A stretch of 46,610 nt of DNA from an uncultured Candidatus Saccharibacteria bacterium. GTDB lineage: Bacteria; Patescibacteriota; Minisyncoccia; Phycocordibacterales; UBA3531. The stretch is taken from the NCBI GenBank assembly GCA_964361405.1, contig CAYIAA010000005.1, positions 1 to 46,610 of the forward strand, in the 5' to 3' direction. A program made the translations under genes and the position numbers. Shown here in pieces: positions 26,293-35,891 of the stretch. Each line of letters starts with the position of its first letter. Position 1 is the stretch's first letter. Under the pieces are notes generated by a model. That model was given only the letters and a program-made list of their open reading frames with translations, had not been told where the DNA came from and ran no database searches.

Positions 26293-26781
26293 ATGATAAA
26301 AGACACTGGAAAGGAAGAGACTACGCTCGTTATCATGAAACCAGACGCGGTTCAGCGCAATCTCTTAGGGGAAATCATTCACCGTTTTGAACGTAAGGGC
26401 CTCAAAATTATGGGTCTCAAAATGATGCGTTTGAGTAGTGTCCTCCTTGATGAGCACTATGCGCTTCACAAAGATAAACCATTCTTCGAATCGCTCAGGC
26501 GCTATATGCAGTCAGCTCCAGTTGTTGTACTTGCACTCTCCGGCATTAATGCAATCGGCGCGGTGCGGCTCATCGTTGGTAGGACGAGGGGATATGAGGC
26601 TCTGGCCGGGAGTATCAGAGGGGATTTTTCGGTGAGTGGACAGACAAATATCGTACATGCTTCCGATTCTAAGGAAACGGCTCAAGATGAAATTAAAAGA
26701 TTTTTTTCTGACGATGAACTTTTTGATTATCAGCGGGTTGACCACCCATTTCTCTACGGAGAAGATGAGTGGGGTTCCTAG
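26293..26781 (+). CDS. ndk: Nucleoside diphosphate kinase
   Basis: TLVIMKPDAVQRNLLGEIIHRFERKGLKI...NIVHASDS. Confidence 0.95.
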   Translation: MIKDTGKEETTLVIMKPDAVQRNLLGEIIHRFERKGLKIMGLKMMRLSSVLLDEHYALHKDKPFFESLRRYMQSAPVVVLALSGINAIGAVRLIVGRTRGYEALAGSIRGDFSVSGQTNIVHASDSKETAQDEIKRFFSDDELFDYQRVDHPFLYGEDEWGS

Positions 26782-26784
26782 AGA

Positions 26785-26812
26785 GTGGATTACCTGTGGA
26801 TGAGAGGTGGAT
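26785..26812 (+). promoter_or_regulatory. Three direct GTGGAT repeats at 11-bp phasing upstream of the RNA-A promoter (candidate regulator site)
   Basis: GTGGAT occurs at 26785, 26796 and 26807, with a fourth copy at 27134-27139 upstream of the RNA-B promoter. Confidence 0.35.
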
Positions 26813-26852
26813 GATTCACCCTTTACCAGTGTATTTTGTCGCCTTAATTCTC

Positions 26853-26881
26853 TTGTGGTGTCCGAGAGAGACTTTTATACT
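26853..26881 (+). promoter_or_regulatory. Promoter of structured RNA copy A (TTGTGG-N17-TATACT)
   Basis: TTGTGG at 26853-26858 and TATACT at 26876-26881. The closing helix of the RNA begins 8 nt downstream. Confidence 0.5.
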
Positions 26882-26888
26882 GAAAATA

Positions 26889-27087
26889 GGGTTACTTGAA
26901 GTATTGCTCAGACGCCGTGGCATTACCTAGCCCAGATCTTTTTTCTCAATACGGGAGTTTCTGCTACATGCGCCGCCGTGGCGGTGCAGTGCGAACACCC
27001 ACCTAGCCATGAGCTAGGGCTAGTAGTATGCCGCTTCAAGTGACCCGATAAAAACCCGCACGAGCTTCCGCTCGGCGGATTTTTGTG
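26889..27087 (+). ncRNA. Unassigned structured RNA, copy A (with its own terminator)
   Basis: A 13-bp closing helix pairs 26889-26901 with 27034-27046. There is a CGTG-loop hairpin at 26969-26988 and a second hairpin at 27002-27018. The terminator is at 27056-27078 plus ATTTTTGTG. The helices are supported by compensatory differences relative to copy B. Confidence 0.6.
27056..27087 (+). terminator. Intrinsic terminator of RNA copy A
   Basis: CCGC(A)CGAGC-TTCC-GCTCGGCGG followed by ATTTTTGTG. Confidence 0.65.
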
Positions 27088-27091
27088 TCAT

Positions 27092-27114
27092 ACCTGCCTA
27101 CCGGCCAGGCAGGT
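27092..27114. repeat. GGCAGG-family palindromic hairpin ACCTGCCT-ACCGGCC-AGGCAGGT
   Basis: Read directly; it lies between the two RNA copies. Confidence 0.8.
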
Positions 27115-27179
27115 GTCTGCCACAGCAAACGCTGTGGATTATTTATGTGAAAAAGAGCTCTAGAGGAAATGAGTGTGAG

Positions 27180-27209
27180 TTGTCGGATACAGTCGAGAAG
27201 AACTATACT
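27180..27209 (+). promoter_or_regulatory. Promoter of structured RNA copy B (TTGTCG-N18-TATACT)
   Basis: TTGTCG at 27180-27185 and TATACT at 27204-27209. The closing helix begins 7 nt downstream. Confidence 0.5.
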
Positions 27210-27215
27210 CTAGAT

Positions 27216-27343
27216 AAGGTTATTTGAAGTATTGTCTAGATCAAGTCGTATTTTTCGGGAACTTTGTTTATTGAGTCACCGTGGTGATTCAATGCGAGCA
27301 CCCACCTGGCGAAGAGCTAGGGCAATACAGCTCAAATAACCTT
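27216..27343 (+). ncRNA. Unassigned structured RNA, copy B
   Basis: A 12-bp closing helix pairs 27216-27227 with 27332-27343. There is a CGTG-loop hairpin at 27270-27293 (10 bp) and a second hairpin at 27305-27321. It shares the blocks GAAGTATTG and GCGAGCACCCA with copy A. The 3' end is uncertain: only a weak hairpin plus GTTTTGTTTTT at 27355-27385. Confidence 0.55.
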
Positions 27344-27414
27344 ACCAGAATTCATCCCACCTCCAAGGGGTGAGTTTTGTTTTTAAGGGATGGGGAACTA
27401 TAATCGAGTCACTG

Positions 27415-27837
27415 ATGAACGAACGCATATTTCCGCTCTTTATTTTGGTCTTTATCACAATTCTTGGCGTCCTCAATACTGTGGCGATGTATGAGATGTG
27501 GTATGCCAAGATACCGAACCTTGATTCCGTGATGCATGTGGCAGGAGGGTTCTTTGTCGGTCTTTCAGCGCTCTATCTCTACTTCGTGAGCGGCTATGTA
27601 CGGGCACTCCACGAGCATGGCATTTTTGCTCTCGCTCTTTCTCTCCTTGCGGCGACGTTTGTGGGCGTACTCTGGGAGTTTTTTGAATATGGTATGGACC
27701 AGTACCGCCTTTCCGAAGGACTCCCCTCAATGTTCCAACCCGGAGTCGGGGATACGATGGCGGATTTTTCCTTTGACATGGTTGGCGGGGTTCTGGCTTG
27801 GTTTCTGTACTACGCATTATGGCGGCGAAAGAGCTAA
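27415..27837 (+). CDS. Hypothetical polytopic membrane protein
   Basis: About four hydrophobic segments, with acidic motifs WEFFEYGMD and GDTMADFSFDMVGG. The start is ambiguous: the ATG at 27415 is preferred, while the GTG at 27370 in the ORF track would overlap the RNA-B 3' region. Confidence 0.6.
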   Translation: MNERIFPLFILVFITILGVLNTVAMYEMWYAKIPNLDSVMHVAGGFFVGLSALYLYFVSGYVRALHEHGIFALALSLLAATFVGVLWEFFEYGMDQYRLSEGLPSMFQPGVGDTMADFSFDMVGGVLAWFLYYALWRRKS

Positions 27838-29186
27838 GTCTTGGTTTTTACGGCGGAGCGGGGCAGACTACCGGCTCCAATTTTCTTATCTCTGACGGCG
27901 AGAAGCGGATTTTAATAGATTGCGGCCTCACGCAAGGGTGCCGATTCTGCGAGGACGTAAATCGAGACCCTTTCCACTATGACCCAAAGGGTGTAGACGC
28001 TCTCCTTGTCACGCATGCGCATATTGATCATGTGGGGCGTATTCCTAAGCTTGTCCGCGACGGATTTCGCGGCACGATTTATTCTACGCCACCAACAAGA
28101 GAAATCGCGGAGCTCATGATGATGGACAGTCTCGGTGTGCTCGGGAAAGAGGCGAGAGGTGAGGGGAAACCTCTTATCTACGAAGAAGCAGACGTTCTAA
28201 AGGCAATGTCACTCTGGAAAGAAATTCCGTACCACGAAGCGTTCTCGATCGGAGAGTTCAGCATAGATATGAAAGACGCTGGGCATATTTTGGGTTCAAG
28301 TGTGTTCGTATGTACCTACGGCGGAAAGAAAATTGCTTTCACGGGGGATCTTGGTAATTCTCCCGCCCCGCTTCTCCGCGACACTGAAGCACTCACGGGA
28401 CTCGACTACCTCGTAATTGAATCAGTGTATGGCGACAGGGAGCATGAAGGTGTCAGTCGGCGGAAGGAAATGCTCGAAGGTATTATCGAGGATACTGTGC
28501 GGCGCGGCGGGACACTCATGATTCCTGCATTTTCCCTTGAACGCACGCAGGAGCTTCTCTATGAGATTAATTCCCTCGTCGAGGGTGGCAGAATCCCAAA
28601 GCTTCCTATCTATATTGACTCCCCGCTTGCGATTGATGTGACGAGAATCTACAAAAAGTACACGAATTATTTTAACAGTGATGCGCGCGGCATTATCAAA
28701 AGCGGCGATGATATTTTTAATTTTCCCGGGCTAGAGTTCACGTATACAACCGAAGAGTCAAAGGCAATCCGTAATGTGAAACCCCCAAAAATCGTGATTG
28801 CAGGTTCTGGAATGAGTAATGGCGGCCGCATTATCCACCACGAGAAACTCTACCTCCCCGACTCTTCGAGCACCCTCCTTATTATCGGCTACCAGGTTCC
28901 GGGGAGTTTGGGTAGGATGCTTCAGGATGGAGTGAAGAGTGTTCGGATTCTTGGGGAGGATGTGATGTCTCGAGCACGAATCGAGACAATCCGCGGCTAT
29001 TCCGCACACAAAGACTCATCCGGACTCCTCGATATTGTGGCGGGGAGTGCTGACACCTTAAAGCGAGTCTTTGTGGTTCTTGGAGAGCCGCGCTCATCAC
29101 TCTTTCTCGCCCAGAGGGTGAAAGATTACCTCGGTATTGAGGCAACAGTGCCGACTCTTGGGGCAGAATTCACGATTCCGGTATAA
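27819..29186 (+). CDS. Beta-CASP family MBL-fold RNA-metabolising hydrolase (RNase J / CPSF-like, short form)
   Basis: HAHIDHVGRIP (HxHxDH), GDLGN, a beta-CASP region, and YSAHKD near the C-terminus. It overlaps the upstream gene by 19 nt. Confidence 0.9.
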   Translation: MAAKELSLGFYGGAGQTTGSNFLISDGEKRILIDCGLTQGCRFCEDVNRDPFHYDPKGVDALLVTHAHIDHVGRIPKLVRDGFRGTIYSTPPTREIAELMMMDSLGVLGKEARGEGKPLIYEEADVLKAMSLWKEIPYHEAFSIGEFSIDMKDAGHILGSSVFVCTYGGKKIAFTGDLGNSPAPLLRDTEALTGLDYLVIESVYGDREHEGVSRRKEMLEGIIEDTVRRGGTLMIPAFSLERTQELLYEINSLVEGGRIPKLPIYIDSPLAIDVTRIYKKYTNYFNSDARGIIKSGDDIFNFPGLEFTYTTEESKAIRNVKPPKIVIAGSGMSNGGRIIHHEKLYLPDSSSTLLIIGYQVPGSLGRMLQDGVKSVRILGEDVMSRARIETIRGYSAHKDSSGLLDIVAGSADTLKRVFVVLGEPRSSLFLAQRVKDYLGIEATVPTLGAEFTIPV

Positions 29187-32780: not shown

Positions 32781-32788
32781 TTTATCTA

Positions 32789-33174
32789 TGGAGATGGCGG
32801 GAATCGAACCCGCGTCCAGTAAGGAAACAAACGCAGATCTACGAGCGTAGCGCGTTTTTGTGTTTTAAGCCGAAGCGTTATGAAGCGCGCAAAATGCGAA
32901 TCAGCCGAGTCTCATTGTTTCTGGTAAGCCAGGAGACACCGGTTCACCATACTCTCACTGTTATGACGCCTCGATGCGCCCCCGGAGAGTCGGGGCACGG
33001 AGACGGCATCCGAAACGCTTACGCGATTGCGAATGCTGGGGCAAAGGGGGACAAAACCCTCTTTGCTACCTTTGATACGTTTGCACGTATATGTTTCTAG
33101 CGTTTTTAACGAGCTAGCTAGAATCCTCGACCCGCGTGCGAAAGAATCGCTCACTGTCAAAGCCGATCATCCCC
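32789..33174 (-). ncRNA. ssrA: tmRNA (SsrA)
   Basis: The 5' end reads GGGGATGATCGGCTTTGACAG. The 3' end, GGACGCGGGTTCGATTCCCGCCATCTCCA, forms an acceptor stem with a G3:U pair. CCA is not encoded. The predicted tag ORF at 33084-33019 starts at GCA and gives ANVSKVAKRVLSPFAPAFAIA*. The gene sits directly downstream of smpB. Confidence 0.9.
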
Positions 33175-35690: not shown

Positions 35691-35819
35691 TTGTGAGACG
35701 CTCTCGCGTCCATCCGCGCGAGGGCGAGATGTGATCACCTCCTTTTCTAAACTGTCTTTATTATCCCAAGCCCAATAGCTCTGTCAATCAACCAAAGTGA
35801 ACGTATGCGCTTAAACGTG

Positions 35820-35891
35820 TGCGCGTGCTAGGACTTGAACCTAGAACCGGTCGTGTATAAGACGACTGCTCTACCATTGAGCTACACGCGC
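35820..35891 (-). tRNA. tRNA-Ile with anticodon UAU
   Basis: The minus strand reads GCGCGTG-TA-GCTC-AATGGTA-GAGC-A-GTCGT-CTTATAC-ACGAC-CGGTT-CTAGG-TTCAAGT-CCTAG-CACGCGC-A. This is a clean cloverleaf with anticodon TAT at 35859-35857. CCA is not encoded. Confidence 0.85.

Follow-up and report, generated by a model that had tools for sequence, protein, structure and literature searches.

6S RNA has been described as occurring in nearly all bacteria, and several Firmicutes carry two 6S paralogues (PMC8414754), as illustrated by the two diverged copies, 6S-1 and 6S-2, which are reported for a single Bacillus genome (PMC3923129). The established 6S cycle has been summarised (PMC8876501; PMC4793215). 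Free 6S-1 of B. subtilis already has a hairpin of 5-7 base pairs (bp) in its 3' bubble, and a 6S-1 that is cut down to the bubble and two short arms is still able to go through the whole cycle in vitro (PMC8876501). Here we compare with these systems two structured RNA elements, copies A and B, which are located behind the ndk gene on a 46,610-nucleotide (nt) stretch of DNA (the window; contig CAYIAA010000005.1 of assembly GCA_964361405.1). The organism is a bacterium of the Patescibacteria or Candidate Phyla Radiation (CPR) from Hainich groundwater. On the basis of comparative analysis, the two elements are very probably tandem paralogous 6S RNA (ssrS) genes, encoding putative binders of the RNA polymerase holoenzyme. 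They most likely belong to a compact CPR-wide 6S lineage that lies under the Rfam cut-off, which makes them most likely RNAs of a kind that is already known rather than a novel class.

Both elements are contained in the 634-nt intergenic gap between ndk (26293-26781) and a gene for a DUF2238 membrane protein (ATG at 27415), and the assembly records ERZ1292623 (ENA) and ERR3858114 (Logan) carry an identical region. The initial annotation of this DNA had proposed two paralogous, independently promoted structured RNAs, at 26889-27046 and 27216-27343, and every element it described was found where it had been placed. The parts of the two RNAs are:

26889-27046, forward strand: copy A RNA, 158 nt, with outer closing helix 26889-26902/27033-27046
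26919-26923/27028-27032 and 26927-26932/27018-27023, forward strand: inner closing helices of copy A
26933-26952, forward strand: 5' central-bubble strand of copy A
26953-26960/26993-27000, forward strand: upstream stem of copy A, GGG-A-GUUU/GAAC-A-CCC
26969-26988, forward strand: terminal hairpin of copy A, with CGUG loop
27002-27018, forward strand: 3'-bubble hairpin of copy A
27216-27343, forward strand: copy B RNA, 128 nt, the canonical form of the group, with closing helices P1 27216-27227/27332-27343 and P2 27229-27235/27322-27328
27236-27256, forward strand: 5' central-bubble strand of copy B
27257-27264/27296-27303, forward strand: upstream stem of copy B, GGG-A-ACUU/GAGC-A-CCC
27270-27293, forward strand: terminal hairpin of copy B, with CGUG loop
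27305-27321, forward strand: 3'-bubble hairpin of copy B

Both copies fold in the layout of 6S RNA. Their closing stem (P1/P2) is long, the 5' strand of the bubble is A/U-rich and measures about 20 nt, and there is an upstream stem as well as a hairpin in the 3' bubble. The 3' bubble consists of an A followed by a hairpin of 5-6 bp (CCURG...CYRGG), and the hairpin on the upstream stem is capped by a loop of the CUUG or CGUG type. The closing helix pairs GGGTTACTTGAAGT (26889-26902) with GCTTCAAGTGACCC (27033-27046) in copy A, and AAGGTTATTTGA (27216-27227) with TCAAATAACCTT (27332-27343) in copy B. As compared to copy B, copy A has an additional outer helix and a remodelled closing stem, and copy B of the window carries a derived GGGAA (A.C mismatch) where its orthologues have GGGAG. 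The minimum free energies are -66.9 kcal/mol for copy A (z -4.9) and -46.0 kcal/mol for copy B (z -5.6), and none of 200 shuffles was as stable in either case. A closing stem, a central bubble and an upstream stem-loop appear consistently in the minimum free energy folds of the two copies and five relatives. The conserved block TGCGARCACCCACCTRGC occurs twice in the window, at copies A and B only, where 0.1 occurrences are expected.

The likeness to 6S RNA (Rfam family RF00013), and to its B. subtilis 6S-1 type, concerns both shape and sequence: a closing stem, a large central bubble and an upstream stem-loop are shared, and so are the GGG-a-NNNN/NNNN-a-CCCACCUgg blocks that flank the bubble, the A/U-rich 5' bubble strand and the CUUG-type terminal loop. 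The Rfam 6S consensus reads ...auaauaGGGagcccucuuU...CUUG...agagggcaCCCACCUgg..., that is, GGG-a-gccc ... gggc-a-CCCACCUgg with a CUUG-capped terminal hairpin, within the stretches ...gAaaauuuuuauaauaGGGagcccucuuU ... GCCcggCUUGuAccgGG ... agagggcaCCCACCUggaAcagCaGG.... Its most conserved (upper-case) letters are the invariant blocks of the CPR family, including the unpaired a/a within the GGG/CCC helix; the 5' bubble of the consensus is A/U-rich and ends in ...auaauaGGGag, and its CUUG cap is also the one on inner hairpin P3a of most members. The bubble-flanking blocks are GGGAGTTT...GAACACCCACCTAG in copy A and GGGAACTT...GAGCACCCACCTGG in copy B, and when copy A is aligned with the 6S consensus by sequence alone, UUUUU-U-AAUA-GGGAG, CACCCACCU and AGGGCU coincide. 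When aligned to RF00013, the family has P1/P2 in the place of the closing stem, its A/U-rich linker in that of the 5' central bubble and P3/P3a in that of the upstream stem, and the CCURG stretch falls in the 3' bubble.

The connection between the window and 6S RNA runs through a large family of relatives. Comparison with loci retrieved via the ndk protein places the window among the Parcubacteria/Paceibacteria within the CPR. A search with a motif and inspection of ndk-anchored loci revealed an RNA just downstream of ndk in four loci (L004, L006, L009 and L010). Since MAFFT misaligned the GGGAG block and P2 when given two to five copies, a covariance model (R1) was seeded from one sequence with a hand-drawn structure, and it was rebuilt from its own hits as R2. 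The first model yielded the RNA of L001, and the second added those of L002, L005 and L007. When R2 was run with filters off, L003, L008 and L011 gave no copy, and no ndk locus from outside the CPR matched. The members share a common plan in which a -10 box a few bases 5' of the RNA is followed by a long P1, by P2, by the A/U-rich linker, by P3 (GGG-A-NNNN/NNNN-A-CCC) carrying P3a, by a single A, by the short hairpin P4 (CCURG...CYRGG), by the returns of P2 and P1 and by a terminator. At least 119 metagenome loci match a pattern of the invariant blocks; model R1 matched 75 of the first 100 of these (E up to 1), R2 about 25 further loci, and about 20 pattern matches that lack model support are probably due to chance. 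R1 scored 59.3 bits on copy B, whereas R2 gave 73.7 bits (E 1.1e-16) on copy B and 54.9 bits (E 1.8e-11, over 26914-27037) on copy A, and found nothing else in a search of the whole window.

Because the architecture resembled that of 6S RNA, the members were scanned with Rfam at relaxed thresholds; the gathering cut-off of RF00013 is 46.4 bits. RF00013 matched the position and strand of the RNA in 18 of 40 loci (5/20 and 13/20), and all but two of the matches cover the full model (1-187). The best scores were 42.6, 41.1 and 40.9 bits, followed in the second set of 20 loci by 36.8, 36.1 and 32.2 bits (E 3.2e-5 to 1e-2 for these six), and the E-value was below 0.01 in eight loci (3.2e-5, 7.5e-5, 8.1e-5, 7.8e-4, 1.2e-3, 9.9e-3, 1.4e-4 in L090, and 4.2e-3). 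No Rfam family except 6S recurred on the CPR RNAs in these relaxed scans. Homology to Rfam 6S is thus present at the family level, via the large CPR family. On this point the initial annotation, which held that the RNAs belong to no known family and that their blocks are unlike those of 6S, has to be revised, since the Rfam 6S consensus contains the GCGA[AG]CACCCA-CCT[AG]G block, its partner GGGAG and the same A/A mismatch, and since RF00013 gives significant sub-threshold matches on the homologues.

For the window itself, the outcome of the Rfam scan that had been suggested as a check is less straightforward. No 6S match was obtained with the whole window at gathering cut-offs, nor with 701 nt of it at an E-value limit of 10, in agreement with the original view, and the exception is a match on copy A when it is scanned alone. 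As neither copy is significant alone against RF00013, the 6S link of the window runs through family model R2. A scan restricted to the window would therefore have wrongly suggested a new RNA, and relatives were needed as an intermediate. Weak matches to SorY, Leu_leader, Bp2_287 and ncr1175 in the window reflect the terminator hairpin only. Several other structured RNAs were considered by comparing the folds with their known features, and none gave an Rfam match: signal recognition particle RNA (there is no GNRA-capped domain IV and no AGCA motif), 5S rRNA (the helix order is wrong), and Y RNA, RNase P RNA, retron msr/msd and the omega RNAs of IscB/TnpB (the shape does not fit).

A number of observations weigh against the assignment as 6S RNA and have to be set beside these results. 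The gathering score was reached in none of 55 loci, nor by either window copy, the best value being the 42.6 bits given above; copy A alone yielded a local match of 14.3 bits (E 0.57, 26924-27025) and copy B alone no match at E up to 10. Conversely, R2 does not detect ssrS of E. coli (3-5 bits), although this says little since 6S RNAs of the E. coli type are distant. The 6S-homologous fold measures about 122-130 nt in typical members, as compared to about 150-200 nt for published 6S RNAs. Furthermore, the metagenome pattern fixes GGGAG, CACCCACCTRG and CYRGG, so that the conservation of these letters in that set is circular; letter conservation is independent in only nine RNAs downstream of ndk, from genome loci that were anchored on the protein, and in the window copies. 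In the relatives found via ndk, a set chosen without the RNA pattern, the conserved block is present in all but one. Covariation, finally, was counted on model-fitted alignments, which favours the structure of the model.

With this in mind, the covariation is substantial. In all, about 100 homologues were found in Patescibacteria genomes and metagenomes. In an alignment of 75 sequences, standard pairs occupy 93.3% of the cells; shuffling lowers this value to 63.5%, and shifting the partners by one to three columns lowers it to 38-49%. Changes on both sides of a pair were counted in 833 cells versus 252 in shuffles, and none of 500 shuffles reached the observed value. Pairs with double changes are present in every helix (P1, P2, P3, P3a and P4), and RNAalifold, to which no structure was supplied, recovers P1, P3, P3a and P4 with compensatory change in 24 of its 32 pairs. 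For P4, which can be written as CCURGN-loop-NCYRGG, two pairs lie outside the search pattern and covary (AU 35, GC 30, GU 7 and AU 21, UA 19, CG 10). The same type of change distinguishes the two copies of the window: base-by-base comparison of their closing helices confirmed the replacements G:C to A:U, C:G to U:A and U.G to U:A, and in the CGTG-loop hairpin (26969-26988 and 27270-27293) three of the eight aligned pairs differ (C-G to A-U, C-G to U-A, G-C to A-U), all in a compensatory manner. A 5' word beside P2 (CUAG, CUG or CCGG) might compete for the 3' strand of P4, since an exact 4-mer complement is found in 15 of 69 cases versus 9.2 after permutation; this is suggestive, is confounded by relatedness and is not relied on here.

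The sequence further suggests that the two copies are separate transcription units: the promoter of each would set the +1 position at the base where the closing helix begins, and an intrinsic terminator lies right after each RNA. The signals are:

26853-26881, forward strand: promoter of copy A, with -35-like TTGTGG (26853-26858), a 17-nt spacer and -10 TATACT (26876-26881); predicted +1 at 26888/26889
27055-27087, forward strand: intrinsic terminator of copy A, with stem CCGCACGAGC/GCTCGGCGG followed by TTTTTGTG; terminator scan matches at 27061-27074 and 27067-27079
27180-27209, forward strand: promoter of copy B, with -35-like TTGTCG (27180-27185), an 18-nt spacer and -10 TATACT (27204-27209); predicted +1 at about 27216
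27346-27385, forward strand: terminator-like hairpin and T-run of copy B; the scan gives a 13-pair stem 27346-27379 followed by TTTTT

The promoter words that had been reported earlier, including their spacing and the coincidence of +1 with the start of the closing helix, are present in the sequence, and P1 begins 7 nt past TATACT in both copies. A scan for consensus promoters flagged the copy B promoter (9/12 matches) and not that of copy A, of which the -35 is weak. At the copy A promoter, CTTGT and TATACT are kept in the relatives L202, L203 and L206, and at the copy B promoter in L202/L203; the copy A terminator is kept in L202/L203 as well, and the copy B terminator region is 86-90% conserved there. 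Together with the helices that are kept by compensatory change, these signals agree with the earlier description of the elements as stand-alone structured RNA genes. In the family at large, a -10-like hexamer ends 5-8 nt 5' of the RNA in 51 of 104 members (mode 6-7 nt), and at least 66 of 106 have a hairpin with T-run behind the RNA; an extra outermost helix plus T-run acts as the terminator in some lineages.

Between the two RNAs a further hairpin, CCACAGC-AAAC-GCTGTGG, is followed by ATTATTT (27120-27146) and is kept in L202/L203; a neighbouring 8-bp hairpin (27093-27115) is deleted there. DnaA-box-like words (TGTGGATTA, TGTGGATGA and GGTGGATGA) are present in the former hairpin and in the stretch right after ndk (26795-26814). 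As a candidate signal the spacer words TGTGGATGA and TGTGGATTA were rejected, their window-wide count being at the level of chance (7 versus 6.5 expected). The DUF2238 gene has a perfect TATAAT (27399-27404) that is kept in L202/L203 and lies just 10 nt before the ATG at 27415, which would leave its mRNA almost without a leader; this promoter is overlapped by the T-tail of the copy B terminator.

Both copies, in the same order, are kept in L202 and in L203-L205, of which ndk is 84-85% identical to that of the window, and among about 110 loci the tandem arrangement was seen only in these and in the window. Copy A is 88-93% identical to its L202/L203 counterparts, with 44/44 and 42/44 pairs kept, and copy B is 93-95% identical. 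The substitutions in stems are mostly G.U transitions or double changes, and 41-44 of 42-44 pairs stay standard. Since the spacer between the copies is only 54-63% identical, as compared to 88-95% for the RNAs, and since pairing is kept, both paralogues are maintained by selection. L206-L208 (ndk 86% identical) have a single B-type RNA behind an A-type promoter region; comparison of L206:981-1385 (also L207 and L208) with window positions 26782-27420 gives the promoter region of copy A joined to the RNA body of copy B. This could reflect deletion by recombination between tandem copies, or the state that preceded the duplication.

The genomic context varies between lineages. Among the pattern-derived members with enough flanking sequence, 34 of 70 have ndk upstream and 30 of 78 have a beta-CASP RNase gene downstream, whereas in 19 of 97 members a tRNA gene (Thr, Pro or Tyr) directly follows the RNA. 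This context fits a housekeeping stable-RNA gene with synteny at the level of lineages rather than a leader that is tied to one operon. In some CPR lineages the 6S gene is part of a small cluster of stable-RNA genes, with RNase P RNA or tRNA-Thr, -Pro or -Tyr; the RNase P RNA gene is found on the same locus, at 0.5-1.7 kb, in L119:1558-1975, L134:841-1178 and L182:2863-3202. In the window the DUF2238 gene overlaps, according to gene calls and Pfam families, a beta-CASP/RMMBL RNase gene (27798-29186), which also matches the Anti-Pycsar Apyc1 family of Pfam; such an RNase gene is also found in L001, L006, L081, L091, L109 and L141, among others.

The frequent synteny with a beta-CASP/RMMBL RNase gene (the 30 of 78 members) is one reason to consider a different explanation, namely that the RNA is a CPR-specific stable small RNA that resembles 6S RNA in shape and in a few blocks without functioning as one, and that serves for example as a partner, decoy or substrate of the RNase. 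All RF00013 scores are under the curated cut-off, which would agree with this, and the invariant CACCCACCURG is unusually strong for 6S RNAs, the members of which are described as conserved mainly in shape. Yet the blocks are precisely the most conserved positions of the RF00013 consensus, A/A mismatch included, the RF00013 matches in 18 of the 40 loci have E-values down to 3e-5 and always fall on the RNA, and about 60% of the members with enough flank have no beta-CASP gene within 3 kb. We consider this explanation unlikely. A link between the RNA and the RNase is plausible under either reading: RNase J1 of B. subtilis, a beta-CASP enzyme, is reported to process and degrade 6S-1 and 6S-2 (PMC10578484). 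The linkage between the 6S gene and the RNase gene may be functional, and since RNase J1 both matures and degrades the Bacillus 6S RNAs, it could reflect processing and not a new function. That the CPR RNA descended from 6S RNA and acquired a role beyond or instead of polymerase sequestration, for example with the beta-CASP RNase, copies A and B having become specialised, also seems improbable to us.

An even less likely alternative is that the elements are cis-acting leaders, such as a tandem riboswitch or a protein-binding attenuator, which control the operon of DUF2238 and the beta-CASP RNase via the terminator. Tandem riboswitches with their own terminators exist, and in L006, L081, L091, L109 and L141 the RNA and the beta-CASP gene behind it share a strand and are 60-100 nt apart, with a terminator in between. 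Against such a function, the downstream genes are inconsistent across the family (the tRNA genes in 19 of 97 members, an unrelated gene in many others), the downstream gene in the window has the conserved TATAAT of its own 10 nt before its ATG, and copy A precedes no coding gene but another promoter and copy B. Moreover, the folds show a closing helix of 12-14 bp with a 7-bp P2 and no alternative antiterminator pairing, and the family matches RF00013. It is hardly conceivable that the elements are miniature inverted-repeat mobile elements with the closing helix acting as terminal inverted repeats at the DNA level: even though inverted repeats of 12-14 bp bound elements of about 130-160 bp of which two stand side by side, there are just two adjacent copies in 46.6 kb, their syntenic position is kept across lineages in which ndk is only 30-70% identical, conservation is strand-specific (R2 scores of 74-79 bits on the plus strand versus 13-16 bits in reverse, with 13 bits for copy B in reverse) and G.U pairs are present, covariation reaches the internal helices, and promoter and terminator lie at fixed distances from the element ends.

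If copies A and B are 6S RNAs, their action can be envisaged from the established mechanism. The RNA would imitate an open promoter and sit in the active-site cleft of the housekeeping sigma-70/sigma-A holoenzyme, and the occupancy of the holoenzyme would damp transcription as growth slows. When nucleoside triphosphates return, the polymerase would use the 5' bubble strand as a template and proceed into the inner closing stem, yielding a short product RNA (pRNA). This pRNA would unzip the inner closing stem, after which the RNA would refold around the 3'-bubble hairpin and the polymerase would be freed. Since the 5' bubble strands and closing stems differ between the copies, A and B would be expected to template different pRNAs, and it is tempting to speculate that they may differ in timing or affinity, like 6S-1 and 6S-2 of Bacillus.

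It is useful to compare the 6S RNAs of the CPR with the described systems. The 5-6 bp hairpin P4 that is pre-formed in the CPR 3' bubble matches the hairpin of free 6S-1 (PMC8876501). The main differences from 6S-1 (about 200 nt) are size, since the CPR fold typically covers about 122-130 nt (158 nt in copy A) and both arms are shorter, the scores under the Rfam gathering cut-off, and a transcript that apparently ends at the terminator right after the closing stem. Precedent for a small size comes from the engineered mini 6S-1, which consists of the bubble and two short arms and can still bind sigma-A RNA polymerase, serve as a template for pRNA and be released (PMC8876501). As this molecule works in vitro, a natural 6S RNA of about 125 nt is mechanistically plausible; in contrast to the engineered RNA, of which the binding is about 10-fold weaker, the CPR RNAs are natural and conserved across the whole radiation. 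Like the 6S RNAs of lactic acid bacteria, they are encoded by stand-alone genes with conserved local synteny (PMC8414754).

With respect to gene duplication, the window copies resemble the pair of 6S-1 and 6S-2 in that their 5' bubble strands are not the same and their closing stems are not equally stable. The Bacillus 6S-1 and 6S-2 genes are at separate loci, whereas the window copies are adjacent, head to tail and about 170 nt apart, with near-identical promoters of their own. The way in which the CPR RNAs came to light resembles that of Ms1 RNA of Actinobacteria, which is reported to have a 6S-like rod-and-bubble shape, to be missed by standard 6S models and to have been found by synteny-guided searches (PMC9130861). 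Ms1 is larger and binds the RNA polymerase core instead of the holoenzyme, and the CPR RNAs matched no Rfam family but 6S. In full-text searches of the literature we found no paper that names 6S RNA together with CPR, Patescibacteria, Saccharibacteria or Parcubacteria, and no earlier description of a CPR 6S RNA or of an ndk-linked RNA motif.

A few other RNA genes were noted during the analysis. On the reverse strand, the window contains a tRNA-Ile gene with anticodon UAU (tat; 35819-35891) and, 2.6 kb from it, a gene for tmRNA (32786-33174; 133.5 bits). In most bacteria, AUA is usually read by a CAU tRNA that is modified with lysidine. In another locus (L093:7533-10626), the 16S rRNA gene spans 3.1 kb as compared to a model of 1533 positions, and thus carries large insertions, which are known in CPR rRNA genes.

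The known workings of 6S RNA are unchanged by these results. What they add concerns its distribution: since none of 55 CPR loci passes the Rfam cut-off, 6S genes are probably unannotated in thousands of CPR genomes, and the CPR sequences are possible seeds for an extension of RF00013. With about 125 nt, the typical fold would rank among the shortest natural 6S folds and would be a natural counterpart of the engineered mini-6S. The tandem pair, with its independent promoters and its maintenance across related species, offers a simple system for studying why bacteria keep two 6S RNAs. For the CPR as a whole, recognition of these genes would give a global transcription regulator to a radiation of which gene regulation is still largely unexplored.

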